Origin: Catajapyx aquilonaris
Lineage: Eukaryota
Reading direction: 5' to 3'
DNA: 64,000 nt
Assembly (NCBI GenBank): GCA_000934665.2
Contig: JYFJ02000293.1
Location: 1-64,000, forward strand
Positions 1,674 to 64,000 of this stretch are shown piece after piece; the stretch's first letter is position 1, and each line of letters begins with the position of its first letter. The notes beneath the pieces are model-generated. The model worked only from the letters and a program-made list of their open reading frames with translations, made no database searches and was not told the origin of the DNA. The position numbers and the translations under genes were made by a program.

Positions 1674-3675
1674 TCAGTTTGCACACACACAGAGGATGTG
1701 CTCAGAAGCAAAACCTAAAAGAGAAATGGTCAAACCGACTAACCATAGGTTAAAGATGGCTGCAAGTTTTCCAAGGGTCAAGACGTCGTCTTCATGAGGA
1801 GACTTTTTGGCCTCCTGCGCTCTGATGTAATCTAATGACTGGAGAAATTGCATGTACATGTAATGCTCTTGGATCTTGAATGGCAAGGCTGTTTCCACTA
1901 TTAATCGAAGAAATCTTTGTACGAAGTAATGGGTCGCAGTGTTTGCACGGGTAAGACCAGAGGAAACATACGTCGGAAAGATCAGCTCCTCAGAGACCAG
2001 GATGGTTGGTGACCCAGTGGCCGTGTCTCTGAAGCGATACATTTCTCGAATCAGTAACAAGTCGATTCCAGCACAAGCTAGGTGCTCTTTCAAGGCCCTG
2101 TCCAGGCAACGTTGGACGCTGCCTCCCAACTTCATGGACTCAGTGAACTTGCTGTGCTTTGGGTTGTCCTGAAGCGAAACGTATTTTTGCAATATGAAGA
2201 ATTCCATTTGGTCAGCCTCGATCTTCCAGCCGGACTCGACCAGTTCTCGGAAATCGACAGGGACGAATTCCCTGGGAGGGTAGGTCAGGAAGGCGAATAA
2301 CTTGGCCTTGTATCCGGTGATGACCACCATTGAGAAGAAGAGGAAAGAAGAGGCCAGCACCAGGAAGTGACCCGCTTTCGGAAATGGCCTGGGCTGCTCG
2401 ATCAGGGCTCTCAATAAAATGTTGAATGATGTCAACAGCTTCTTTCTGTTGCTAAGTGATTGAGTTTGAGGTGCAAAACGTGACAACATGAATGCAGAAG
2501 CCCATAAAAACATTAGTGCGACGATAAATGTTACCCAAAAAGTGGGTGAGTACGGCCTGTACAACACTTTCCAGGTGACCTCACCTCCGGGCTTCCTCGT
2601 CAAAAAAGAACCATGAGCATAAATATGAGGTCTATTAAAGAGAAAATGCCTCATAGTTTCCTCGGAAAGAAATACAAAAAATGCTCCATCTATTTTGCCA
2701 GAGATCAGATCCCCGGTTAGTCTTACCCACGTTCCGTTTGAAAGAAGATGATCCAAATCTGCACTAGTAACCTCTCTCAGATGATACGTCACATGTGCAT
2801 TTAGTGATTTTTCTAGTAGAAGGAAAGCGCGTTCTATGTCTGTCAAATGCATTTCACCCAGGGTCTTTGCCCTCATCCTCACGTCTTCCATATCAACTTC
2901 GATGTGGTAATTACCCACCCGAAAGGTTTTATTGCTCATCCAGTTAGGCTCGTTAGGTCGAAAAACCGTGGTGTCGGCTGAAGTGTCCGAGAGGAATGAT
3001 TTCAGTTTGTCCTTGGTGTCCGCAAAAGAAGCAAACAGTGTCCATCCGAAGCTTGTCCGATTCCATCACTGTAGACACTTTGAGCCAGAGTGCACTTGCA
3101 GGAGGTGATTTCAACAACTGGTGAACTTTCTCTGTGCCTTTCGATTGGAAATGGATCAGGAACCGATCGTATGCAGGCCCCAACTTGACCATTGTGGCTG
3201 TGTACATGAGAAGCTGTGCAAACGAAGAGGGTTTTGAAGGCACGAGAAGGTGAAAGGTGCAGGGCAGTCCTGACCACGCCCTGGACATGATGTCCGGAGG
3301 GACAGTCCGAAAGTCCAGCATTTCCTTCTGACTTTTCACCCAGGGGAAGTCACGAAATGTGTATGGGAAAGTGGTCATCCGGAGATTGAATGAGGTCAGG
3401 TACTTGTCCCATTGTGACGAGAGGAGACCCCAAATGTCCTGTCCCAATCGTGTCTTGTCTGTGGACAGGACGAGCCCGCACTGTCTGAGGTCATCTCTTT
3501 CAGTCAGAAGAGTCTGAACCAGAAGAGAGACCAGGTTGTCTTCTTCCGTATTCACTGCAAGTGAAATGTTCCCAACTTGTCTAGGGTTCCCAACTCCATT
3601 CTTCGCTCGTCCTGACCTTGCGTCACCTCCAAATGTCACAAAAACCACGGAGAACCAAACGAGTGCTTGCAACAT
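1674..3675 (-). pseudogene. divergent ionotropic receptor (IR) copy 1, frameshifted
   Basis: ORFs 2953-3768 and 1674-2939 are the two halves of a protein close to copies 2 and 3; a 14-bp deletion at ~2965 breaks the frame; shared signal-peptide ATG at 3675. Confidence 0.85.
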
Positions 3676-4617
3676 GGCTAAGGCATATGTCATAAGTGAA
3701 TATGAACAGTACATATAAGCATATGCATTATAAATTAGGCTACGTAGGAGTGTTCCTATATATGGCATAGTATGATTTCAATCCGAACTGCGCACCTACA
3801 GCCAATGGAGATTGGATAGTAATCGCAGCAACAGGCTTGCACACTTGTCCAGTTCTCACGAGAAGACTAAGGCGGAAAGATAGTGTCTAATCTATACGCC
3901 TCAACTGGGGTTTCCCTCTGAGCACATTCTGTCATCGTACTGAGTAGTAATGAGCCATTAGTAAATGCAATTAGTGTGAAACAAGAATAATAAAGCGTTA
4001 ATATTGTTTCTTCTTCTCCTTTCTTATAATCCTACTACAGCTGCAGGTTGTTATGTTTGATACGATATAATTACGTACTACAGACTGTACCTCCTGTCGC
4101 ATAGCCCAAAATCAGTTATTCTAACACAGGCAGTCAATACCAATAACAGCACAGGTGCAAATCTCACTCGTTTCTAATTTAAATTTTTTTAGAACTGAAC
4201 CGAGATGAGTTAAAATTTGTAATGCGTCCAATTAACATAATATAATTACCCAGTTTTAGTGTGTTAATTTATTATTGAGAAGAGGGGAATATTGGTCGAA
4301 CCTATGGCTGTATATCAAAAACTGTAAACATATCGTGGAATTTTCGTCCCACTGCTATACTAGTTGTTGCTAGCAGTACTACCAATGTTGGCAATGGTAA
4401 GTCTAAGTTAGCAGTGTCTATAGCAGTGCCGCAGTGGGACTGTCACAGTTCCATGTGACAGAGTGGGAACGGTGCCATCTTGTCCAAAAAACCGATCTTT
4501 CCTAGGCAGCTCCTTTTCATCAAGAGCAAGACAGTGTAATCACGCAGTAATTATTGTGTCGAGCGCGGAAGGACTATAGGTAATGATGGTATTTATTTTG
4601 GTATTGTGAAGTTGAGT

Positions 4618-4690
4618 GCACCTAAAAAAGCAATAAAAATCACGGAGCACCAAACGAGTGCTTGCAACATGGCTACATGGCCTCTTACCT
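4618..4690 (-). pseudogene. 5' remnant (signal peptide only) of a fourth IR copy
   Basis: ATG 4670 reads MLQALVWCSVIFIAFLG versus MLQALVWFSVVLVAFGG in copy 3; homology ends abruptly at ~4618. Confidence 0.75.
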
Positions 4691-5901
4691 TTAGTATAGC
4701 CTTTATGCCCTTGACCACAAATCTCCTACTCGCTAAACACAATGGTGATATTTATAGCAGTCTTTTAGAGTAGAAGTAATCATCTGTTAGCAACAATATA
4801 ATTATAATATTCGGTCTCATGTACTATGGAACTAACACATTTTGCCCGACCAGCTTTTAACACCGCATCACACCCTATGTGATGGACAATATGCCATGCC
4901 TAACTCGTTTCCCGCCAACATTGGATCTTGCGGGTTTTGCTTTGCCGCTCCTTTAGCCTATCACATGAGAATCCAAAACACCACGTATGCTGTGTGCATG
5001 GACACAGTCGAAACTTTGTAAACGTGACAACACTGAGGATTTACATTGTTTGACGATTGTTTGAAGAGATTTGGAGGATACTGTGTGCACGGTTGGAGGA
5101 ATGTTTCAACATAAGCTGTGCATTACATCCCAATTGCACTGAGATTGTGAGAAAAAAGGATATATTCATCTCTCAGCTAAGTGGTACAGTCAATTGATAT
5201 ACTGTCTACACGTCATGTATCTCTATGCATGGGGTTGAACTTGACAGCTATAGAGAAGATTATGCCAAATCTAACTGAAGTCACTAGATATCGCTTCAAA
5301 TCTGTTCAAATCAGTGCACAGGATATAATCTGTCTCTAAGTCCCGCTGTGCATTTCAACATATAGAAGAATTTCATTATAAAAAATGTTATCCTATGCCA
5401 TTGAGATATCTTAGACAAATCTTGACTAGCAATAATTTTTGAAGATAGTCGAAATGAACCTATTTTCTGTTTTTTTTTTCCTTTTTTGCACCCAAATTTT
5501 AAAATACATGAAATTTGACAATCTGCACACACTAATGCTAACAACTGACAACAACTTAACAAAAGATGTAATTCCCGTTATTTTGGGTTCAAGTATAGTA
5601 AGTATTTACAGTTTGTATCTTTGAAAAGCAACTAGCAATTTATGACAAGAAATAATGAACGTGATGATTTGATAAATGCATTACAAAAATTTGACATGAA
5701 TTTTGAAATTAGAGATGGAATTGGTTTTGCCACAAATTTCAGGTACGATTCCCGTATGTAATTACTCCTGACATGTTACTGCCCCCAAGTTCCCGTTTCC
5801 CTATATTCCGCAATATCCCAATTGTTTTAACATTGTTGCTTGCATTGTTTGAATTGTTGTTTGAAATAAAATGAGTATTTGCCACATGCTTTCATTCCCA
5901 T

Positions 5902-5964
5902 TGTCATCCTGATAGTATTATGTTTAGCCCAAATTTGGCAAAACATAATACTATCAGGATGACA
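5902..5964. repeat. perfect 24-bp hairpin
   Basis: TGTCATCCTGATAGTATTATGTTT and its reverse complement separated by a 15-nt loop. Confidence 0.8.
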
Positions 5965-6706
5965 CTTGGACGATGTACCCAGCATGAATGGTGTTTTGGT
6001 GTTAGGGTCGATAGCCTGTGAAGTCTTCCCATTTCCTGTTCCATTAATAAGCTGGAAAGAAAATGGGAAGACTACGAGGTTTGAATGAAAGGTGGTAAAT
6101 GATGTGCATAGGCGTGTGATATTGTTTATTTCATATTATTTTTGCGATGTGCAGTGCAATACAAGAGCAATCGTACTGATATAAATTTATATTTATGCTT
6201 AAAAAATCATGGCGCATTTTTGTGCTTGGCCGAGTTTTACATGTTACTTATGCATTGAGTAATTGACACATAATTATAAACTGATATGAAACAAGTAATA
6301 ATACAGAGGTTTGAACAATATTAACAATATTAAGTTTTACGCACATTAAATAAGCATTGAAATCTATTCCATTAAAACAGTCAGTTAATCTGAATGAATA
6401 AACGACGTGATTAATCTTGATCAATTTATTAAGAGTATGAATTACAGCCGCCAAGTACTGGGCATGATTTCGAAGGGTTATATTGCTAATTCATCAGTAA
6501 TCTGCATGAAATAATAATATTATGTAATTCACTCCGATAGAGATTAATATTCTTTTGTCAGGAACATTTAGAACAATAACAACAGCAGAATGAGGGTCAG
6601 GAGCAGCAGTGTAAACATTAGGAACAGCAGCCTTTTAGTCACAGCGAGCCACAATGAATTATGGGCGCATGTATTACGAGATGTTTCAACAGATGGAAAT
6701 GTTACT

Positions 6707-8704
6707 TCAGTTTGCACACACACAGAGGATGTGCTCAGAAGCAAAACCTAAAAGAGAAATGGTCAAACCGACTAACCATAGGTTAAAGATGGCTGCAAGT
6801 TTTCCAAGGGTCAAGACGTCGTCTTCATGAGGAGACTTTTTGGCCTCCTGCGCTCTGATGTAATCTAATGACTGAAGAAATTGCATGTACATGTAATGCT
6901 CTTGGATCTTGAATGGCAGGGCTGTTTCCACTGCTAATCGAAGAAATCTTTGTACGAAGTAATGGGTCGCACTGTTTGCACGGGTAAGACCTCCGGAAAC
7001 ATACGTCGGAAAAATGATCTCTTCAGATATCAGGATGGTTGGTGACCCAGTGGACGTGTCTCTGAAGCGATACATTTCTCGAATCAGGAACAGGTCGATT
7101 CCAGCACAAGCTAGGTGCTCTTTCATGGCCCTGTCCAGACAACGCTGTACGCTGCCTCCCAACTGCATGGACTCAGTGAACTTGCTGTGCTGTGGGTTGT
7201 CCTGAAGCGAACCGTATTTTTGCAATATGAAGAAATCCAGTTGGTCAGCCTCGATCTTCCAGCCGGACTCGACCAGTTCTCGGAAATCGACAGGGACGAA
7301 TTCCCTGGGAGGGTAGGTCAGGAAGGCGAATAACTTGTCCTTGTATCCGGTGATGACCACCATTGAGAAGAAGAAGAAAGAAGAGGCCAGCACCAGGAAG
7401 TGACCAGCTTTGGGAAATGGCCTGGGCTGCTCGATCAGGGCTCTCAATAAAATGTTGAATGATGCCAACAGCTGCTTTCTGTCGGTAAGTGATTGACTTT
7501 GAGGTGAAAAACGTGACAACGCGAATGTAGATGCACATAAAAACATTAGTGCGACGATAAACGTTACCCAAAACGTTGGTGAGTACGGCCTGTACAGCAC
7601 TTTCCAAGTGACCTCACCTCCGGGCTTCCTCGTCAAAAAAGAGCCATGAGCATAAAAATGAGGTCTATTAAACAGAAAGTGCCTCATAGTTTCCTCGGAA
7701 AGAAATACAAAAAATGCTCCATCTATTTTGCCAGAGATCAGATCCCCGGTTAGTCCTACCCACGTTCCGTTTGAAAGTAGATGATCCAAATCTGCACTAG
7801 TAACCTCTCTCAGATGATATGTCACATGTGCATTTAGTGATTTTTCTAGTAGAAGGAAAGCACGTTCCATGTCCGTCAAATGCATTTCACCGAGAGTCTT
7901 TGCTCTCATCCTCACGTCTTCCATATCAACATTGATGTGGTAATTACCCACCCGAAATGTTTGATTGTTCATCCTGTTGGGCTCGTTATGTCGAAAAATA
8001 GGCGCAAGAAAACCGTGGTGTTGGCTGAAGTCTCCGAGAGGAATGAGTTCAGTTTGTCCTTGGTGTCCGCAAAAGAAGCAAACAGTGTCCATCCGAAGCT
8101 TGTCCGATTCCATCACTGTAGACACTTTGAGCCAGAGTGCACTTGCAGGAGGTGATTTCAACAACTGGTGAACCTTCTCTGTGCTTTTCGATTGGAAATG
8201 GATCAGGAACCGATCGTATGCAGGCGCCAACTTGACCATTGTGGCTGTGTATATGAGAAGCTGTGCAAACGAAGAGGGTTTCGATGGCAACAGAAGGTGA
8301 AAGGTGCAGGGCAGTCCGGACCACGCCCTGGACATGATGTCCGGAGGGACAGTCCGAAAGTCCAGCATTTCCTTCTGGCTTTTCACCCAGGGGAAGTCCC
8401 GAAATGTGTATGGGAAAGTGGTCATCCGGAGATTGAATGAGGTCAGGTACTTGTCCCATTGTGACGAGAAGAGACCCCAAATGTCCTGTCCCAATCGCGT
8501 CTTGTCTGTGGACAGGACGAGCCCGCACTGTCTGAGGTCATCTCTTTCAGTCAGAAGAGTCCTGACCAGCAGAGAGACCAGTTTGTCTTCTTCCTGATTC
8601 CCTACAAGTGATATGTTCCCAACTCCATTCTTCGCTCGTCCTGACCTTGCGTCACCTCCAAATGTCACAAAAACCACGGAGAACCAAGCGAGTACTTGCA
8701 ACAT
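6707..8704 (-). CDS. divergent ionotropic receptor (IR) copy 2, intronless, 665 aa
   Basis: Signal peptide MLQVLAWFSVVFVTFG; S1 GTWVGLTGDL; M1 PYSPTFWVTF; pore LLRALIEQP; SYTANLAAF-equivalent GYKDKLFAFLTYP; last TM LTLGKLAAIFNLWLVGLTISLLGFASE; ATG chosen because it is shared by all copies. Confidence 0.88.
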   Translation of the reverse strand: MLQVLAWFSVVFVTFGGDARSGRAKNGVGNISLVGNQEEDKLVSLLVRTLLTERDDLRQCGLVLSTDKTRLGQDIWGLFSSQWDKYLTSFNLRMTTFPYTFRDFPWVKSQKEMLDFRTVPPDIMSRAWSGLPCTFHLLLPSKPSSFAQLLIYTATMVKLAPAYDRFLIHFQSKSTEKVHQLLKSPPASALWLKVSTVMESDKLRMDTVCFFCGHQGQTELIPLGDFSQHHGFLAPIFRHNEPNRMNNQTFRVGNYHINVDMEDVRMRAKTLGEMHLTDMERAFLLLEKSLNAHVTYHLREVTSADLDHLLSNGTWVGLTGDLISGKIDGAFFVFLSEETMRHFLFNRPHFYAHGSFLTRKPGGEVTWKVLYRPYSPTFWVTFIVALMFLCASTFALSRFSPQSQSLTDRKQLLASFNILLRALIEQPRPFPKAGHFLVLASSFFFFSMVVITGYKDKLFAFLTYPPREFVPVDFRELVESGWKIEADQLDFFILQKYGSLQDNPQHSKFTESMQLGGSVQRCLDRAMKEHLACAGIDLFLIREMYRFRDTSTGSPTILISEEIIFPTYVSGGLTRANSATHYFVQRFLRLAVETALPFKIQEHYMYMQFLQSLDYIRAQEAKKSPHEDDVLTLGKLAAIFNLWLVGLTISLLGFASEHILCVCAN

Positions 8705-11145
8705 GGCTATGGCATCTGTCATAAGTGAATATGCACAGTACATATAAGCATATGCATTATAAATTAGGCTACGTAGGAGTGTTCCTATATGGCATAGTAT
8801 GATTTCAATCCGAACTGCGCACCTAACCAATAGAGATTGGATAGTAAAATGGAAGCAACAGGCCGGCTTGCGCAGTTCTCACGAGAAGACTAGGGAGGAA
8901 GAGATAGTGTCTAATCTATACGCCTCAACTGGGGTTTTCCGATGAGCACATTCTGTCATTGTACTGAGTAGTAATGAGCCATAAGGAAATGCAATTAGTG
9001 TGAAACAAGAATAATAAAAGTGTGAATCGTTTCTTCTTCTCCTTTCTTATAATCCTATCCGACATTTAATTCCAGCCATCTTAAGTTCAGCCATACCAGT
9101 GCATGTATGGAGGCATGACACCTCTCTCCTTCTGAAGTGTCTACCCTTGACCTTCTCTCCAAATCTTGCAAATTACACCCAACTTACATATTTAATTGGG
9201 TATATCCACAGCGAGCCGCTGTCAGACCAAGTGTGCAGTTATATCTTTAATTATTCACAAAGTTGGAGGCACTACCGCTACTTGTTGTTATACGTATGTT
9301 TGATACGGTATACGTACTATACACGCTGTACCTGTCGCATATAGCCCAAAATCAGTTATTGCAACATAGGCAACAGCACATGTGAAAATCTCACTCGTAT
9401 CTAATTTAATTTTTTTAGAAAATTAAAACAACCATAGACTTTAAGTTACGATATCTTTGTCACCGAGATTAGTTAAAATATGTGGCCTAAATAAAATGCG
9501 TCCTATTAGCATAATATAATTACCAAGTTTTATTGTGTTAATTATTGTGAAGAGGGGAATAATGGTCGAACCTGGCTGTAAATCAAAAGCTGTAAACATA
9601 TAATATGGATTTTTCGTCCCACTGCTACTAGTTGTTGCTAATGTAGGCAATGGTAAGTCTATAAGTTAGCAGTGTCTAGCAGTGGGCCTGTCACGTGACA
9701 AAGTGGGAACGGTGCCATCTCGTCCAAAAAAAAAAAAAACGATCTTCCCTAGGCAGCTCCTTTTCATCAAGAACAAGACAGTGTAATCACGCCGTAATTA
9801 TTGTTTCGAGCGTGGAAGGAATCTAGGTAATGATATCGTATTTATTTTGGTATTGTGAAGTTGAGTGAACAATACGACATGCCCCATAATTATTATTATG
9901 CTTTCTGAAATTTCTTTGTTGTGGACTAGTATTGGAGGGATTGATGTCCTGCCTATTTCTTTTTCTTCCCTTGTTTAAGTCATACAGTGTCCCCAACGGA
10001 CAGGGAGATCAGGCTAACATGGCCATACTTAAATCTGAGACTGAACCCGATTGAACCTGAAGAAAGGCTGGGGACAAGTTCAATTCTGGAATATTTAAGT
10101 CGATGTTAGACAGATATTGTGCAATATTTATTGAGGGGAGAAATCAGAAGTGAAATGCAATAATAATTATTGCATGACTCTGATAATGGGGGAGGTTATG
10201 TAAGTCTGTTTTCGAAACAATAAACCATGTCCTGAATGTCAAGTTCAGCATTATAGTCGATAAACTTGTTTGCGACGAAGGGAGAACTTATCACACAAAA
10301 TCATGGCCTTAATATTGATGAAGACTTACTGCGGAGTATGTCAGGTGGGACCAGGAAGGCGCCTATAGTGATTTTATGTTTTAATAATACTTCATGGAAT
10401 AGTTTCTTTTAGTGGTTTTAAAACATGAGCAGCCAATATTAAGCCATATACATAATTATGTAAGCTTATACAGTAATATAAGCTATATGCTAATTAGATA
10501 TGTCAAATACTGTATTTATAGCTTAGATCGCTAAGCTATATGAATAACAATGAATATCCATTTGGGAATGGCCAATAATTGAAAACACTGGCATCGGATT
10601 AATGTAAATAATTGATAAGAACTTGTCGCCAGTGTAGCTCAATAATAATCATCCTGTTCCAATAATAAAATTCAAGAAGGCTGGAAAGAAAATGGGAAGA
10701 CGGCGAGGTTTGAATGAAACGTTGATTCATGATGTGCAGGCGTGCGATGTTGTTTATTTCATATTATTTATGTGATGTGCAATACAAGAGCAATCGTACT
10801 GACATAAAGTTACATTATTTTATGCTTTAAAAATCAGAATGCATTTTTGTGCTTGGCAGATGGTAAAGTTTTACATAATGCATTGACACAGATACACTTG
10901 AAACAAGTAATAATACAGATGGATATTCTTTTGTCACGAACAACGCGTCACCATTTTATTATTACATATGAATAAGCGGTTTACAATGTATTATTAGAAC
11001 AATAAAAACAATAACACAACTTCAGCAAAAATAAGTGTCAGGAGAAGCAGCAGTAAAAACAATAGAAGCAACAGCCTTTATTCACGGGGAACCACAATGA
11101 ATAATGGGCATCTCTTACGAGATATTTCAACCAATGGAAACGTTA

Positions 11146-13140
11146 TCACAGTTTGCACACACAGAGGATGTGCTCAGAAGCAAAACCTAAAAGAGAAATT
11201 GCCAAACCGACTAACCATAGGTTAAAGATGGCTGCAAGTTTTCCAAGGGTCAAGACGTCGTCTTCATGAGGAGACTTTTTGGCCTCCTGCGCTCTGATGT
11301 ATTCTAATGACTGGAGAAATTGCATGTACATGTAATGCTCTTGGATCTTGAATGGCAGGGCTGTTTCCACTGCTAATCGTAGAAATCTTTGTACGAAGTA
11401 ATGGGTCACACTGTTTGCACGGGTAAGACCTCCGGAAACATACGTCGGAAAGATCAGCTCCTCAGAGACCAGGATGGTTGGTGACCCAGTGGCCGTGTCT
11501 CTGAAGCGATACATTTCTCGAATCAGTAACAAGTCGATTCCAGCACAAGCTAGGTGCTCTTTCAAGGCCCTGTCCAGGCAACGCTGGACGCTGCCTCCCA
11601 ACTTCATTGCCCGAATGAACTTGCTGTGCTTTGGGTTGTCCTGAAGCGAACCGTATTTTTGCAATATGAAGAAATCCATTTGGTCGGCTTCGATCTTCCA
11701 GCCGGACTCGACCAGTTCTGTGAAATCGACAGGGACGAATTCCCTGGGAGGGTAGGTCAGGTAGGCGAATAACTTGGCCTTGTATCCGGTGATGACCACC
11801 ATTGAGAAGAAGAGGAAAGAAGAGGCCAGCACCAGGAAGTGACCCGCTTTGGGAAATGGCCTGGGCTGCTCGATCATGGCTCTCAATAAAATGTTGAATG
11901 ATGCCAACAGCTTCTTTCTGTAGGTAAGTGATTGACTGTGAGGTGCAAAACGTGTCAACGCGAATGTAGATGCCCATAAAATCATTAGTGCGACGATAAA
12001 CGTTACCCAAAACGTTGGTGAGTACGGCCTGTACAGCACTTTCCAGGTGACCTCACCTCCGGGCTTCCTCGTCAAAAAAGAAGCATGAGCATAAAAATGA
12101 GGTCTATGAAAGAGAAAGTGCCTCATAGTTTCCTCCGAAAGAAATACAAAAAATGCTCCATCTATTTTGCCAGAGATCAGGTCCCCTGTTAGTCCGACCC
12201 AAGTTCCGTTTGAAAGGTGACGATCCAAATCTGGACTAGTAACCTCTCTCAGATGATACGTCACATGTGCATTTAGTGATTTCTCTAGTTCAAAAAAAGC
12301 GCGTTCCATATCTGTCAAATGCATTTCACCCATTGTTTTTGCCCTCATCCTCACGTCTTCCATATCAACATTGATGTGGTAATTACCCACCCGATATGTT
12401 TGATTGTTCATCCTATTAGGCTCGCTGGGTCGAAAAATAGGCGGAAGAAAACCGTGGTGTCGGCTGAAGTGTCCGAGAGGAATGAGTTCAGTTTGTCCTT
12501 GGTGTCCGCAAAAGAAGCAAACAGTGTCCATCCGAAGCTTGTCCGACTCCATCAGTGTAGACACTTTGAGCCAGAGTGCACTTGCAGGAGGTGATTTCAA
12601 CAACTGGTGAACCTTCTCTGTTCCTTTCGATTGGAAATGAATCAGGAACCGATCGTATGCAGGCACCAACTTGACCATTGTGGCTGTGTACATGAGAAGC
12701 TGTGCAAACGAAGAGGGTTTCGATGGCAACAGAAGGTGAAGGGTGCAGGGCAGTCCGGACCACGCCCTGGACATGATGTCCGGAGGGACAGTCGCAAAGT
12801 CCAGCATTTCCTTCTGACTTTTCAACCAGGGGAAGTCACGAAATGTGTATGGGAAAGTGGTCATCCGGAGAGTGAATGAGGTCAGGTACTTGTCCCATTG
12901 TGACGAGAGGAGACCCCAAATGTCCTGTCCCAATCGTGTCTTGTCTGTGGACAGGACGAGCCCGCACTGTCTGAGGTCATCTCTTTCAGTCAGAAGAGTC
13001 CTGACCAGCAGAGACACCAGTTTGTCTTCTTCCTGATTCACTACAAGTGATATGTTCCCAACTCCATTCTTCGCTCCTGACCTCGCGTCACCTCCAAAGG
13101 CCACTAAAACCACGGAGAACCAAACGAGCGCTTGCAACAT
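11146..13140 (-). CDS. divergent ionotropic receptor (IR) copy 3, intronless, 664 aa
   Basis: Same iGluR/IR architecture as copy 2 (GYKAKLFAYLTYP); uninterrupted ORF. Confidence 0.88.
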   Translation of the reverse strand: MLQALVWFSVVLVAFGGDARSGAKNGVGNISLVVNQEEDKLVSLLVRTLLTERDDLRQCGLVLSTDKTRLGQDIWGLLSSQWDKYLTSFTLRMTTFPYTFRDFPWLKSQKEMLDFATVPPDIMSRAWSGLPCTLHLLLPSKPSSFAQLLMYTATMVKLVPAYDRFLIHFQSKGTEKVHQLLKSPPASALWLKVSTLMESDKLRMDTVCFFCGHQGQTELIPLGHFSRHHGFLPPIFRPSEPNRMNNQTYRVGNYHINVDMEDVRMRAKTMGEMHLTDMERAFFELEKSLNAHVTYHLREVTSPDLDRHLSNGTWVGLTGDLISGKIDGAFFVFLSEETMRHFLFHRPHFYAHASFLTRKPGGEVTWKVLYRPYSPTFWVTFIVALMILWASTFALTRFAPHSQSLTYRKKLLASFNILLRAMIEQPRPFPKAGHFLVLASSFLFFSMVVITGYKAKLFAYLTYPPREFVPVDFTELVESGWKIEADQMDFFILQKYGSLQDNPKHSKFIRAMKLGGSVQRCLDRALKEHLACAGIDLLLIREMYRFRDTATGSPTILVSEELIFPTYVSGGLTRANSVTHYFVQRFLRLAVETALPFKIQEHYMYMQFLQSLEYIRAQEAKKSPHEDDVLTLGKLAAIFNLWLVGLAISLLGFASEHILCVCKL

Positions 13141-14755
13141 GTCCTCTAGCTTCTTACCTTCTGAAGCCTCTACCTTTGACGACCTTCTCTCCAAATGTCG
13201 CCAATTATTATTGCTACTCTATACATATTTAATTAGGCAGGTCCAAAGTGAGCCGCTGTCATACCAAGTGTGCAGTTACATCTTTAATTATTCGCACAGC
13301 AGTCGGAGGCACTACCGCTACATGCTGTCATGTTTGGTATGATATTACTTACTACAGACTGTATACCTGCTGTCACATATTAGACCAAAATCATTTATTC
13401 CAAAACAGGCAGTCAATACTCAATAACAGCACATGTACAAATTTCACTCATATCTAATTTTAATTTTTTCAGTAAAACTGAAACAACACATGACTTTAAG
13501 CGTCGATAACTTTATCACCGAGATGAGTTACAATTTCTGGCCTAACTAAATGCGTCCAATTAACCTAATATTATTACACAGTTTTATTGTGTTAATTATT
13601 TTGAAGAGATGAGAAATTGGTCGAACCTGGCTGTCAATAAAAAGCTGTAAACATAATATAGTGGATGTTTCTTCCAACTGCCACTAGTTGCTGCTAACTT
13701 AGTAGCACCAATCAATGTTGGCAATCATGGTAAGTCTAATAAGTTAGCAGTGGGACGAAAATTCCACCCATAATTATTTATTATGCACCTGGAAAGTATA
13801 GAAGGATAACATAACAGGCAGTTGGTTGCGTAATTAATTGTTTGTTTAATCTTCCATTGAAACAGCAGCCAAACAACAATAAAAACAGCAGCAATAACAG
13901 CGATGCAGCGATTGGTCGGTTGTGTTGTGTTGGGATATATAGTTACGTCACCTTTGACACATCTCGAGGTTTAAGCCACTTGTTCTGGTCGCAATGACCA
14001 TTTGGAATGTCGCGTTATCACTTCTTCTTTTTTTTTTACACACCTGTTTCGTCGTGTCCTCTGAGGTTGCTACGAGCTACTAAAGCATTGTTAGCGTTTA
14101 ATGTTGGCAGCCACGCAAAAGCACGGTTGGTCCTCTCTCAGTATACTCTTCCAGCTCTGTGGCTTTCGACTGAGACTATATAGCCAGGGTACTACCAGCT
14201 TCATCTTTTTTGTCTGGAATAGTACACCTGACATGTCTCAGACTAGGCCACACTGCACATGATAAAATTATTTGCTGGTAACACCGAAAATTTACCGTCT
14301 ACTTTTTCTCACAGAAAATACTCCTCTATACTCGATTAGGAGCTTGCGACACTTCGTCTGACTCTAACGTGTAATCCCTTGAAATTAAAATTAAAATTAA
14401 TTAATATTATATACTTCGCTGTATCCATATAATGTCCCATTTTTCTTTTGCATGTTGAACGTACAGACAAACGCTATAGTATATTCTGATCGACGATCTA
14501 GTTTGTTGATCTATTTGACTGTATGACACGAGTTTTACATGCTTTGTGATGCTTTATACACCTTGCAGCGCGGTTGGTAAAACCCGGTTTGGACCCAATA
14601 TTTCGGCAAATGGAAGACAACAATTTGTGCAAACGAAAATCGATGGAAATTGGCAAATCTTCTTTAAAAGCGATTAAGCACTTGCATAACCTTGCAATTA
14701 AGAGAAAGGAGATCATTTTACAGTACTTTGAGTAGTTGAAAGGAATTTTCTGCTT

Positions 14756-41395: not shown

Positions 41396-42202
41396 ATGTA
41401 CTATCTGCAACAAGAAGGTTTTGGCCGCTTTGTATACTATCTGCGGCAAAAAGTTAGGCCGCTATTTACTATCTGTGACAAAAAGGTTTAGGCCGCTTTG
41501 TACTATCTGCGGCAAAAAGTTTGGGCCACTTTTTACTATCGGTGACAAAAAGATTGGCCCGCCTTTTACTATCTGCGGCAAAAAGTTTGGGCCGCTTTTT
41601 ACTATCTGCGGCAAAAAGATTGGCCCGCCTTTTACTATCTGTGACAAAAAGTTTGGGCCGCTTTTTACTGTCTGCGACAAACAGATTGGCCCGCCTTTTA
41701 CTATCTGCGGCAAAAAGTTTGGGCCGCTTTTTACTTTCTGCGACAAACAGATTGGCCCGCTTTTTACTATCTGCGACAAAAAGTTTGGGCCACTTTTTAC
41801 TATCTGCGGCAAAAAGATTGGCCCGCTTTTTACTATCTGCGGCAGAAAGTTTGGGCCGCTTTTTACTATCTGTGACAAAGTTTGGGTCGCTTTTTACTAT
41901 CTGCGACAAAAACTTGGGGCCACTTTTTACTATCTGCGACAAACAGATTGGCCCGCTTTTTACTATCTGCGGCAGAAAGTTTGGGCCGCTTTTTACTTTC
42001 TGTGACAAAAAGTTTGGGCCACTTTTTACTATCTGCGGCAAAAACATTGGCCCGCCTTTTACTATCTGTGACAAAAAGTTTGAGCCACTTTTTACTATCG
42101 GCGACAAAAAGAATGGCCCGCTTTTTACTATCGGCGACAAAAAAGTTTGGGCCGAAAATGTCAGGCGAAAGTGGCCCAACCGTTTTGTCACGGATAGTAC
42201 AT
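41396..42202. repeat. 33-bp minisatellite (~23 units) inside a TIR element in the INCENP 5' UTR intron
   Basis: Unit TTTTTACTATCTGCGGCAAAAAGTTTGGGCCGC; ends ATGTACTATC... and ...GATAGTACAT are inverted. Confidence 0.9.
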
Positions 42203-42255
42203 TCTGATAATGCTTACAGCGTTTATGATTGATTCTCCAGCAGATAGAGTTTACG

Positions 42256-46740: not shown

Positions 46741-59246
<12,506 letters not shown>

Positions 59247-59439
59247 GGCTCGGTCTAATCCCACCAACACACTTCATGTCTCCTCTCCTCCCTTGTCTCT
59301 GGATGGTGGGTTTTACAACAGACAGGAACAACAGGAAGAAACGGGGAAGAAGAAGAAGTGAAAGTCTCTCTCTGGAAAAGAAGTCTGGGAATCGGAGGAG
59401 GGAGGGGCTTCAAGTGGGTGGAGCCTACACAATGGAATC

Positions 59440-59640
59440 CGGAATGCGATTGGGTCCAACCAAGCATTCGGACCAATCGGAGTGAAGCCCACACGCCGAT
59501 TCTGGCACTGATGGTTTGAACATGCACATACCCGCCACTAAACGCATGCGCACTGTGGATCCTACCCGTAAGTAAAGTATGGGGAGCACTGTAATACGAT
59601 GTTGAATGTGCAAACTGAAGGACGGGCCAATGAATCGAGA
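59440..59640. promoter_or_regulatory. probable Ptp10D / CCDC40-side divergent promoter
   Basis: ATTGG ~59449, CCAAT 59473 and 59627, CCCGCC 59531, CGCATGCGCA 59543. Confidence 0.45.
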
Positions 59641-60511
59641 GTATGTCGAGGTCTTGCCAAATTAGATGCTGAAATTCCATACGAGCCATACAAGTACACT
59701 ACTGTTCGTAGTACGTAGTGCGCATATTCGGACGCGGCCACCATTCGAATGAAAAAACTTTTTTTTTTTCTTCTTCTCCCGCGACATTTAAATATATTGA
59801 TCTATCGATTTGTTGTCATTTTTTTAATCCACTTTATTATTTTTTTGTCCCAGTTGCCGGGGTCTGGCCACTCTGCTCCCGGCAAAATAACCGATCAATT
59901 GATTGATCCAACTTTTCTGCTCGTAATTATAAGGAGCACAAGGCATTTTTTTTTGTACTAATTACAGCTAATTAGCATGTACCCCGCATGAGTAATTGTA
60001 TGCACAATAAGTGTGTGCGCTTTGGAGTAATAATATCTTGCGACAACCATACAAATTTAATGTACATTATTATTGTTAATTGCTAATTTTTTAATTAACC
60101 CCCTTATAGCTGGAAATGTTGTGGTTAATTGCTAATTAAAATGTCCATGATTAATTGTTCCTGTATGGACAATAGTGTACGTAGATTGCTTTCATGCCCT
60201 GTGCGCTGCTTTGGTGTTGCGACAACTGTACGCATTTAATGTACATTGTTAATTGCTAATTAACATGTTACGGTTTGATAGGTGACCTGTACGGACAATA
60301 ATTTCATGCCCGAGAGCAAGTACGCTGTGACATGAACTATAATTATTACAAGCGGACCAATGTGATTTAATGAATGAATTAACGTTGCTAAGTAGCGCTA
60401 AGTACATGCGTTTACATTGCCTTTCTTATTGTTGCGCACGAATGACTTCCCTTTGAACATGGCGCAGGTATTGACAAGGACAGCTCCGGTTCAATCGAGC
60501 GTAAGGAGGCG

Positions 60512-60613
60512 ATGCTGCTGAACTTCATCTTTGCAATGCTCATTTACTACGTGCTGAGGATCGTACTAGGCAAGATTTGGAACCGGATCCGTCCAGCGAG
60601 GGCCGCAATCTAA
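60512..60613 (+). CDS. putative 33-aa transmembrane micropeptide (uORF/smORF)
   Basis: MLLNFIFAMLIYYVLRIVLGKIWNRIRPARAAI; G/C-ending codons in an AT-rich region; flanked by acceptor CAG at 60467 and donor GTACGT at 60625. Confidence 0.5.
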   Translation: MLLNFIFAMLIYYVLRIVLGKIWNRIRPARAAI

Positions 60614-60803
60614 TTCGGATTAACGTACGTACCACCATGAAAATAGTATGGTCTCGTTACTTGTTGTATGAAACGTTACTTGCAGGTTTTACAGCCGGTA
60701 CCAAGTTCATCGCTGTCGTTACTTGCGATTGAGTTGCAGCAGGTAATTGTTGATCGGCTTTTATACTGGGAAGTGTCTCACTCTTTTTATGCTTTCTACA
60801 GCT

Positions 60804-63800
60804 ATGGACGGTGAGCGGGACGACCCAAGTGACGCCCAGGATGCGGATATTGAGGATGGCTCGGAGGCGGACAGGCGGAGTCCACGGTCGCCGGTGTACC
60901 GCCAGTCGATGCGGCTGCCATCGGTGTCCAACTTGGAGACGGGCGATCTCCAAGAAGCGATGCGTTTGCACGAGGCGATAAAAGTCGAGAAATCCAAGCC
61001 AGCCGCTGACAGTTCAGTCGAGAGCCACTTATCATCCACGTCGTATGGGTTGCCCCCTGCGACGGGCGGCTCCAGGCGTCAGTTTGAATCCTGGCAGCCA
61101 CCGGCACACATGCAGTTCAGGTGGTCCGTGGACAACAGAGAGGATCCGTCCGAAGAGGATTCGCTGTACCTCAACCCGGACCACCCGCTGATGACCCGCT
61201 ACCAGGAGACGCTCAAGACCTTTCTGATCCAAGCGCTGGAGAAGTATAAGATTGAAAAGCATGTCACGGTATGTAACCTGCAATTTAGAGACATACGGAC
61301 AGTTGAATTTTCCGCTCGTTGTTGTGCAGGACGGCGGATTGAAGAAGGCGAGGGAAGAGCGGAAGACCATAGCCAACCACTTGCTGACAGTGTCCGACTT
61401 GTACAAAGGCGCAGTCGAGACGTTTGACAAGACCCAAGCTGAGCTGGACCGGGCCGGAGTGGAGCGGGAGGAGATCGAGGACATGTTCAGGCAGGCGAGG
61501 GCCAAGTGGGAAGTACTGATGGACCAACAGGATTCGATGCGAGTGGAAGAGCGGGATCTGCGGAAGGCGCTGGAGATGATGCAGGTGAAGCAGTCGATGC
61601 TGGAGGGAGTGGACGAGCGGATGCTGATGGAGCTGCAGCTGCTCAAGTCGGCCGAGGGACGAGTAGCATCGCAGAAGCTGAAGACGGCCATAGCCAAAAA
61701 GGCGCAGGATATGCTTATCGACAACTTAACACGCAAGCAGGACGACTCCAGAAATCAGATCCTGACGTTCAAGGCACGGTTGGACGCGCAGAAAGAGGAG
61801 GTCGAACAGACTAGGACTCTGAAGATGGCCGGACGGCTGCAGGTACGTCCACTTGTTCGCTCACATGTACGTAACTAACATGCTTCCGATAGGTTGAAGA
61901 GGTTAAGCTGATGATCCGACGGATGCGGATCGACTGGGGCATGGCGCAGAAGATGCTGCACAACGCGGAGGAGAACGTGTACAAGCTGGATAAGGAGAAG
62001 GTGGAGCGGACGGCCTTGCGGCAGAACCTCAAGTTCGACTTCAGGTCGGCCTGTCGAGCGCTGGAGAACCAGCAGCGCGTTCACGAGCGGATGCAAGGCC
62101 ACAAGAACACGGTGGACCTGAAGGTGTTCCAGGCCAGGAAGCGGGCCAAGAACGAGGACGACAAGGTCACCAAGATGTACGAGGAGTGGCTCCAGAAGCA
62201 GCGGATCCTGGAGGAGGAAGAGCAGAAGCTCCAGACCGTCCTGCAGAAGCTCCGCGTCAAGGAGGCCCTCCGCGAGGAGTACCGCGAGCTCTTCAAGAAC
62301 GCGTACCAGGAGCGGTACGAGCTGCGGATCCAGCTGATGCGCAACCTGGAGGACCACTCCTGCACCGGGAAGGGCACCACCAGCCTCCACCAGCGGCTGG
62401 AGGCTCTCCAGAACCAGTCGGCCAACCTGAACCAGGAGCTGCATTTCGACAAGAACCGATTGGCAGGGCGGTACTTGGACCTGGAGGTTCAGGAGAACCG
62501 GCTTGCGACCAAGCGGAAGGAGCTGCAGGTGCTGCATGACGGGTTCCAGCAGCAGTGCGGCACGCTGGATAAGGTCGAGGTGGAGCTGAGCAACGCGGTG
62601 CTGGAGGAACGCCGCGGATTGGTGCAGCTGGACATTCTGACAGGTACGTACTGGCGGCCACTGTGGATTCCGCTCTAACGATGCGTCTCGTAGGCAAGCG
62701 GCATGAAGCGGAGGCCTACTACAAATCGAAGCAGGCTCAAGCCGGCCCGTTGCAGCACAAGCTCCACCGTATGGAGGAAACGGCGTCCGTCCTGAAGCGA
62801 TCCATTAAGGACATATTCGAGAGCTGGCGCGGAAAGCGGAATGGGCTTCTCCAGAAGACCCGGGCGCTTCACTCGCTGTCGACCACCCGGCACTACAGGC
62901 TGCAGGAGTCGGCCGCGCTGAGGCGGTACGTCCAGAAGGAGGAGACGAGGATGGAGGACCTGGCGAAGGAGGTGAAGAAGGAGGAGGACATCATCATGCG
63001 GATGGGAGAGCAGGTGTCGAAGCTGCACAGCGAGAAGAAGCTGCAGGCTGGCGTTAAGGTGGCGGCGAAATGGGGGAACGTGATACTGCAGGACGAGCAG
63101 GCTCATAAGGTACGTCGTCGTCGCTTCATGTCACGCAGGTACTAATCGCGGTTGTTCAGATACGGGAGCTTGAGAGCGCGACGTTGCGACTGGCGAGCGA
63201 CATCGAGGGGAACAAGGCGGGGCAGCAGCGGTTGGCCCTAGCCCTTCTGGACCGCCGGGACGAGCGGCTTTTCTGGGAGAAGCGGCTCCAGACGGCGCAG
63301 GAGGCCCGAGAGACCATCAAGACGGCGGAGGAGCCGGAGATGCACCACATGAAGCAGCAGATCCACCACATGGAGGTGCGGCTGAGGGAGCTGCTGCGGG
63401 TGCAGGAGAAGGTGCTGCAGGACATGGAGAAGGGCGTGGGTCAAAGGGCGCACATGTACACGAAGGCCGAGTGCAGGCTGAGGCGGTCCGAGACGGTCGC
63501 CAAGAGCAAGGAGGCCAAGCAGGAGAGGGCCATCCAGCTGCTGCAGTTCAAAGTCGAGAAGGCCAAGAAGGTAAGGCTCGCTTAACGAGAAGCTGCGGCA
63601 ATGTGACTGAAAGCGCGACGTTGCAGGAGTCGGCGTATTGGGAGCAAGCCGTTGATTCGATGCGAGTCAAATCCGTTAACCTGAAGACCAAAGTGGAGCT
63701 GGAGCAAGAGGGCGCTTGTCGAATGCACCACAACTTGGAGCGCTTGAAGGCGGACGTGCAGCACGCTTGGGTGCAGAAGATGCGGGGAGTCGAATCCATC

Positions 63801-64000
63801 GTGGCCCAGCAGAACAGGGTGAAGACGTACGAGGACATCAAGAAGGGGAAGGTGAAGGTGCCGTTAAGCAGGGAGCCCCAGGAGCTGGAGGATCTGATCC
63901 AGGAGCAGATGCGGTGCAGGGAGGCCATCGTGGAGATGCTGGTGCAGTGCATGCAGGACTGCAGGCCGCAGGGGCTGCTGCTCAAGAAGGCGTTGCACAT
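60804..64000 (+). CDS. CCDC40: coiled-coil domain-containing protein 40-like (axonemal ruler), 3'-truncated by window
   Basis: Exons 60804-61268, 61330-61842, 61893-62643, 62694-63109, 63160-63570, 63627->64000; acidic N-terminus, then LNPDHPLMTRYQETLK (recalled CCDC40 LDPDHPLM.RFQ motif), long coiled coils and LFWEKRLQ..QIHHMEVRL. Confidence 0.78.

Follow-up and report, generated by a model that had tools for sequence, protein, structure and literature searches.

The 64,000-nucleotide (nt) stretch of animal DNA considered here (positions 1 to 64,000 of contig JYFJ02000293.1 from the Catajapyx aquilonaris assembly GCA_000934665.2, forward strand; hereafter the window) closes with the core motile-cilia gene CCDC40, which is preceded by an open reading frame (ORF) of 33 codons. 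An earlier, sequence-only reading took this ORF for a membrane micropeptide starting at its own ATG and spliced into the CCDC40 leader. It is probably, instead, the downstream part of a real and unannotated coding exon, 60468-60624, whose start was misplaced in that reading and which carries, unexpectedly, a calcium-type loop. The features on which the argument rests are the following:

60468-60624, + strand: candidate coding exon, proposed from its codon score, with 47 whole codons (60470-60610), a stop codon (60611-60613), 11 further nt and a donor at 60625; its acceptor scores 2.8-3.5 bits
60473-60508, + strand: EF-hand-type loop of 12 residues (D-K-D-S-S-G-S-I-E-R-K-E), which precedes the ATG at 60512 in the same frame
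60512-60613, + strand: 33-codon ORF, read from its sequence and from alignment-free models as a hydrophobic helix (60512-60568) and a 14-residue tail with four Lys/Arg and zero acidic residues
60625-60685, + strand: predicted intron of 61 nt (14.2 bits; GC 0.39), with three ATGs inside
60686-60742, + strand: predicted non-coding exon of 57 nt (GC 0.49), whose frames score -1.4, -4.0 and -2.4 bits, none of them coding-like
60743-60801, + strand: predicted intron of 59 nt (13.9 bits), whose donor exceeds all 551 background GT sites
60804-64000, + strand: CCDC40 coding region, a six-exon model of 975 codons without a stop that runs past the end of the window

Coding potential was expressed as a synonymous-codon score in bits (true exons average 17.7), with non-coding windows of the stretch and dinucleotide shuffles as controls and a held-out test on windows from its presumed non-coding DNA. 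Splice sites were scored with a matrix based on 20 introns inferred from reading frames (not from RNA), whose leave-one-out scores range from 8.9 to 24.2 bits; introns in this DNA are short, 16 of the 20 measuring 50-61 nt. By these measures the 33 codons, which run from the ATG at 60512 to the TAA ending at 60613 and encode the residues quoted earlier, do show the coding-like G/C-ending codons ascribed to them (G/C at 0.73 of third positions), and their score of 10.7 bits is equalled or exceeded by none of 1338 non-coding windows and by 5 of 2000 dinucleotide shuffles. What did not hold is 60512 as the start, since the frame is already open and coding-like from 60470. Indeed, the frame of the ORF is open from 60446, and the cumulative codon score drops until 60470, climbs from there and flattens near the stop, with a splice acceptor candidate at 60467, exactly where the bias sets in. 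The 14 codons between 60467 and the ATG, which lay outside the stretch selected by the earlier reading, score +6.1 bits (reached by 159 of 39,956 held-out 14-codon windows), and the 8 codons before the acceptor -6.4 bits. Taken together, the 47 codons reach 16.7-17.0 bits, a score found in none of 1314 background windows, in 2 of 2000 dinucleotide shuffles and in 18 of 37,580 held-out windows, all of the latter within one stretch near 34 kb that we take for an exon belonging to another gene, together with its shadow on the antisense strand. Splicing at 60467 also takes out a strong out-of-frame ATG at 60459. No parent copy or paralogue of the candidate exon was found within the window. In our judgement, translation of this frame into a peptide of some kind is likely.

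The hydrophobic helix followed by a basic tail, likewise described earlier, is borne out by the four Lys/Arg of the tail and by a best 19-residue hydropathy of 2.18, which is reached by 6 of the 412 ATG ORFs of 25-70 aa in the window (the 33-codon ORF counted). At a hydropathy cut-off of 1.6, its per-codon score is reached by two of these 412, the other one overlapping, near 15.8 kb, a region of the opposite strand that we read as receptor exon. The loop upstream of the ATG agrees with all 12 positions of the PROSITE-type EF-hand loop consensus given in PMC9177970, with Gly6, Ile8, Glu12 and a hydrophobic residue at -1. This is the only match among the 127,996 six-frame positions of the window, and in shuffled DNA the consensus occurs at 1.6e-6 per position and a stricter pattern at 1.3e-7 (12 and 1 in 7.68 million), although the true odds are less extreme than the shuffle rate because it was Atlas EF-hand clusters at 0.84-0.86, a lead only, that drew attention to the loop in hindsight. 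A loose form of the pattern is expected about 0.2 times across the whole window.

Downstream of the stop, the two proposed introns are indeed GT..AG stretches of a size typical for the window, and their scores fall in the middle range of the 20 training introns; splice pairs of at least 14 bits number 6 in 37,058 nt of presumed non-coding DNA. The donor at 60625 is good and lies 11 nt past the ORF stop, and no hexamer within one mismatch of AATAAA occurs in 60614-60830. The 57-nt piece between the introns is, as described, free of ATGs and carries a TGA in the CCDC40 frame. The further claim that the two ORFs cannot fuse stands only along the path drawn in that reading and need not hold for the donors at 59568 and 60501, which are in phase with the CCDC40 acceptor at 60801. 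The codon bias, the intron-like pieces and the missing poly(A) hexamer would be read most economically as a real coding ORF on a leader spliced into CCDC40. As a separate feature of this leader, the word GTTACTTG occurs three times in 60657-60727, twice within the 61-nt predicted intron and once within the 57-nt exon; the copies are possible RFX half-sites or splicing elements.

The identity of the gene starting at 60804 as CCDC40, also part of the sequence-only reading, is confirmed by the matches of two of the three exons searched to CCDC40/FAP172 chains of solved structures (E 9e-4 and 1.8e-9); the third exon searched against these structures gave no match. Its start codon stands in a strong context. 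Word-index protein searches with two of its exons returned nothing at E up to 0.001, and by these measures the CCDC40 of this window is a divergent one. Fly chordotonal neurons and testis express Ccdc40 (PMC6367277).

Where, then, would the frame of the candidate exon begin? If the exon is entered through the acceptor at 60467, in phase 1, the product would start in an upstream exon, and the region before it holds the following elements:

59094-59246, - strand: signal-peptide-like first coding exon of the divergent neighbour, labelled a receptor tyrosine phosphatase (from the ORF list, the donor at 59093 and downstream exons)
59449-59553, no strand: probable bidirectional promoter motifs from motif scans, with CCAAT boxes at 59449 and 59473 and a CGCATGCG core at 59543
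59522-59567, + strand: best candidate first coding exon, with an ATG at 59522 or 59546 and a phase-1 donor at 59568 (5.7 bits), for a product of 63 or 55 residues across the predicted junction with 60468
59599-59710, + strand: alternative first coding exon, with an ATG at 59599 and a phase-1 donor at 59711 (4.9 bits), giving 85 residues by the predicted junction
59854-59922, + strand: possible non-coding exon, a GC-richer 69 nt behind the strongest acceptor of the region (59853, 11.7-12.1 bits)
60384-60396, - strand: X-box-like (RFX) site, matching RYYRYY-N1-3-RRNRAC
60459-60521, + strand: out-of-frame 20-codon ORF with a strong start context and a codon score of -4.4 bits, its ATG being intronic if 60467 is the acceptor

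Neither 59522-59567 nor 59599-59710 is compelling as a first exon, and the codon score of the latter is non-coding-like (-13.8 bits over 37 codons). A survey of the residue that would fall at loop position X-4 found an ATG-open frame with a hydrophobic residue there for 9 of 63 GT sites, with a fair donor only at 59711. The donor at 59568 is in frame with the CCDC40 acceptor, so that one first exon could feed either protein; spliced straight to 60801, it would add 16 residues to CCDC40. Two smaller observations concern the same region. Downstream of 59854-59922, an intron-like piece of 45 nt with a branch-like motif (9.6 bits) runs to 59967; the 69 nt before it are a possible leader exon. An identical 10-mer occurs at 59515-59524 and 60452-60461, ending in the ATGs at 59522 and 60459, and nowhere else in the window; a duplication behind these two start contexts was considered and rejected, the flanking regions failing to align (155 of 500 shuffles score as well).

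The reading that we favour, and hold tentatively, is that 60468-60624 is the second exon for a spliced protein of 55-85 residues, built of a calcium-type loop, one membrane helix and a basic tail, and that the mRNA of this protein continues into CCDC40. Transcription would start from a promoter common to the divergent phosphatase gene, and the first exon would most simply end at 59567. The product, of 55-85 residues and not 33, would have a short soluble N-terminus with one EF-hand-type loop, followed by the membrane helix and the basic tail, and would be inserted in the manner of tail-anchored proteins; basic tails of this sort are typical of mitochondrial or peroxisomal targeting. Sitting at the membrane surface, the loop might take up Ca2+ or Mg2+, for which it would probably have to pair with a partner or with another copy of itself; with the helix inserted N-out instead, it would lie on the lumen side. 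After the ORF stop, the RNA would be spliced twice more into CCDC40, which would make the mRNA dicistronic, and CCDC40 could be produced via leaky scanning, reinitiation or an alternative 5' end near the X-box. A bolder version, in which this membrane microprotein of 55-85 residues on the CCDC40 mRNA, its single loop placed directly before the membrane anchor, serves ciliated neurons or sperm as a self-pairing membrane sensor triggered by Ca2+ while its ORF throttles CCDC40 translation, seems to us unlikely. If the favoured reading were true, annotation would have overlooked a small membrane protein that binds calcium and is linked to a core motile-cilia gene. The one-loop-plus-anchor design would then be a test of how simple a membrane calcium sensor can be, and through the long upstream ORF one could approach the setting of the CCDC39/40 ruler's dose. 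As dicistronic mRNAs are ordinary in arthropods, the interest lies in the predicted peptide.

A number of observations weigh against this reading. Regarding the exon itself, the acceptor at 60467 is weak (about 10% of background AG sites reach its score) and the same site scores better as a donor (60468, 6.7 bits), the pair 60468/60685 reaching 13.8 bits; moreover, the bias of the 14 codons is modest, as 122, 154 or 328 of 5000 shuffles of them reach the score, depending on the training set. Regarding the first exon, 59522-59567 is not coding-like, its -1.8 bits over 15 codons being a neutral value (48 of 430 coding and 297 of 1326 non-coding windows lie on the respective sides), and the pair 59568-60467 scores 8.5 bits, just below the lowest leave-one-out value of 8.9 (n=20). 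The strong acceptor at 59853 lies in between, and use of its exon closes the upstream frame with an in-frame stop, while the X-box-like site at 60384 suggests a promoter closer than 59449-59553. In EF-hands, X-4 and the position following Glu12 are non-polar (PMC4196763); here the X-4 position would be occupied by Pro with the best first exon and by Val with the second-best, Ala follows Glu12 so that the 13-position EF-hand pattern fails, and none of the candidate first exons supplies a proper entry helix. A second loop pattern, as needed for an EF-hand pair, is absent from the whole window, and Pfam gives no EF-hand match for the exon alone. Alignment-free AlphaFold2 models the loop as helix and the peptide as one long helix. 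Although the 12-residue consensus is present, these flanking features fail, and the putative product is not filed here as an EF-hand protein.

The same side of the balance holds the absence of any homologue of the 47 codons in word-index, phmmer, PDB and Pfam searches. The word-index protein search (25-83 aa) returned none for the candidate, phmmer none at E up to 0.001 among 1.84 billion representatives, the PDB search with the exon none at E up to 10, and Pfam none for six variants, the 33-mer alone giving a weak PAP2 match (E 0.12). As these word-index searches missed CCDC40 itself, empty searches for its 47-residue neighbour say little. An exact look-up found 0 of 7 window ORFs, and Rfam over 57500-61000 gave nothing at gathering score and nothing across the ORF. 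A metagenome scan of at least 596 stretches yielded, among the matches listed, two loci in contigs of 67% GC that were judged to be chance, covering residues 1-19 only and mostly presumed intron. The best Atlas clusters, at 0.86 (EF-hand) and 0.83 once EF-hand clusters are left aside, are leads only. In the literature, journals behind subscription being outside the coverage, no link between CCDC40 and an upstream peptide was found.

How else could the locus be explained? The probabilities worded here and above for the favoured reading and its rivals are judgements, not computed values. The exon could be a relic, captured from an EF-hand (possibly EH-domain) gene and no longer translated, lying in the CCDC40 leader or in an intron that starts at 60468; the 13.8 bits of the pair formed by donor 60468 and acceptor 60685, the want of a convincing entry helix in any upstream exon, the resemblance of the internal duplications in 60038-60300 to a decayed repeat and the presence of PF12763 (EH) in 37% of the members of the top Atlas cluster all point that way. 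However, the 47-codon frame is intact, with exon-level codon bias between the splice site and the stop, no parent copy exists in the window, and neither Pfam nor PDB (E up to 10) gives an EH or EF-hand match. We hold a relic to be improbable, if the readiest of the alternatives. Slightly less probable is the original sequence-only model of a 33-residue peptide, started at 60512, as an upstream ORF of CCDC40, for which an RFX-type promoter near 60384-60500 would start the mRNA. X-boxes sit near the start of motile-cilia genes (PMC4168999, from which the consensus was taken), the expression of fly Ccdc40 in chordotonal neurons and testis fits such a promoter, the site at 60384-60396 may mark a nearer, second, cilia-type promoter, and the 33 codons are coding-like by themselves. 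Against this, the model does not account for the loop pattern or for the coding-like character of the 14 codons, the ATG at 60459 has a stronger context and opens an ORF overlapping 60512, and the X-box consensus has 41 matches in the window (7 with a perfect RGYAAC half), which makes a single match weak evidence.

The microprotein could also be spliced on an mRNA of its own, ending before or inside the CCDC40 leader, with CCDC40 transcribed from a separate promoter. Two promoter-like regions are available for this (59449-59553 and near 60384), and in the fly only 45 of 159 such loci are exclusively dicistronic, most making monocistronic forms as well (PMC4528330); the lack of any poly(A)-like hexamer in 60614-60830 and the good donor 11 nt past the stop speak against such a gene, which we regard as distinctly unlikely. 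That the leader is an ordinary one, and the open frame, codon pattern and motif coincidental, would agree with the choice of the ORF after the fact, with the failure to find a homologue and with the roughly 0.2 loose loop patterns expected in the window. Nevertheless, one and the same frame combines the splice boundary with the codon bias, the loop pattern and the membrane helix, and just 2 of the 412 short ATG ORFs match its per-codon score at the hydropathy cut-off of 1.6, leaving chance a very slim prospect. Slimmer still, to the point of being hardly credible, is an N-terminal extension of CCDC40 by a few residues, including most of the loop, through splicing of donor 60501 (or 59568) to 60802 in frame: relative to the CCDC40 frame, the acceptor and each of the two donors are in phase 1, but donor 60501 is weak (3.1 bits; pair 6.4) and its use would make the coding-like membrane segment intronic.

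Among known systems, the arrangement of the ORF and CCDC40 would be comparable to the dicistronic mRNAs common in the fly (159 gene pairs; PMC4528330) and to its 44 conserved-peptide upstream ORFs, or CPuORFs (PMC2276209). There, too, a short upstream ORF (15-179 aa, mean about 70) shares a spliced mRNA with an unrelated main gene (PMC4528330, PMC2276209), whereas those cases are defined by transcripts and a Ka/Ks below 1 and the present candidate by its sequence. Fly Ccdc40 (CG41265) gave 0 matches in the 12 of 13 supplement files of PMC4528330 that were searched for the polycistronic gene table, and none in the main text of PMC2276209. With canonical EF-hands the candidate shares the 12-residue loop (PMC9177970, PMC4196763), and it differs in having no identified entry helix, an Ala after the loop, a lone loop and an exit helix leading straight into the membrane segment. 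A functional analogy only, with no sequence relationship claimed, may be drawn to plant OEF18, which is also small and membrane-anchored and oligomerises with Ca2+ through one functional EF-hand (bioRxiv 10.64898/2026.08.13.744648); it is the larger protein, contains an EF-hand domain pair and is predicted to have two helices in the membrane.

The regulins (phospholamban, sarcolipin and sarcolamban), of which the earlier reading had heard an echo, likewise have a single membrane helix, which carries an Asn close to where it begins, but they stop at the helix or about 5 residues past it (PMC8396278), unlike the candidate with its 14-residue basic tail and upstream loop. The equivalence of the peptide's Asn near the helix start to phospholamban Asn34 has no alignment support. 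Pfam returned no regulin profile match and the tail is too long and differently built, and a regulin identity was dropped. The first half of an EH (Eps15-homology) domain looks similar, with an EF-hand loop, an Ala and, later, L-x-x-I-W. Compared with that domain (PMC8144573), the candidate has about 5 extra residues, a strongly hydrophobic linker and no second EF-hand. An EH identity was also rejected: the candidate has no EH match in Pfam or the PDB, it does not show the two EF-hands with a conserved Trp pocket that mark the domain, and the Atlas value of 0.86 is only a lead.

As for the surroundings, the divergent neighbour bears the label of a Ptp10D-like receptor tyrosine phosphatase from the reading of its translations. 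Because this gene starts at 59246 on the minus strand, and in view of the head-to-head layout and the motifs, 59250-59600 is probably a bidirectional promoter; the CGCATGCG core at 59543 we take to be NRF1-like. Just upstream of the X-box-like site, 60038-60311 contains short AT-rich stretches (35-53 nt) that are duplicated internally at about 80% identity and look like a decayed repeat. On the phosphatase side, a long, nearly self-complementary stretch at 57531-57706 is probably a small inverted-repeat element in the first intron of that gene, Rfam offering only plant-miRNA-type matches (best 39 of 105 bits, far under the gathering score), and two arrays of a 31-nt unit at 57990-58990, in opposite orientation and with arms of up to 184 nt that are about 83% complementary, have the look of a foldback or miniature inverted-repeat transposable element (MITE). 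Farther away, three similar long ORF blocks on the minus strand within 1677-13218 (about 1677-3777, 6710-8878 and 11149-13218) form an apparent tandem paralogue cluster, one copy of which is split across two frames, and the tandem repeat arrays at 41470-42210 and 48850-49400 give rise to long, meaningless open frames.

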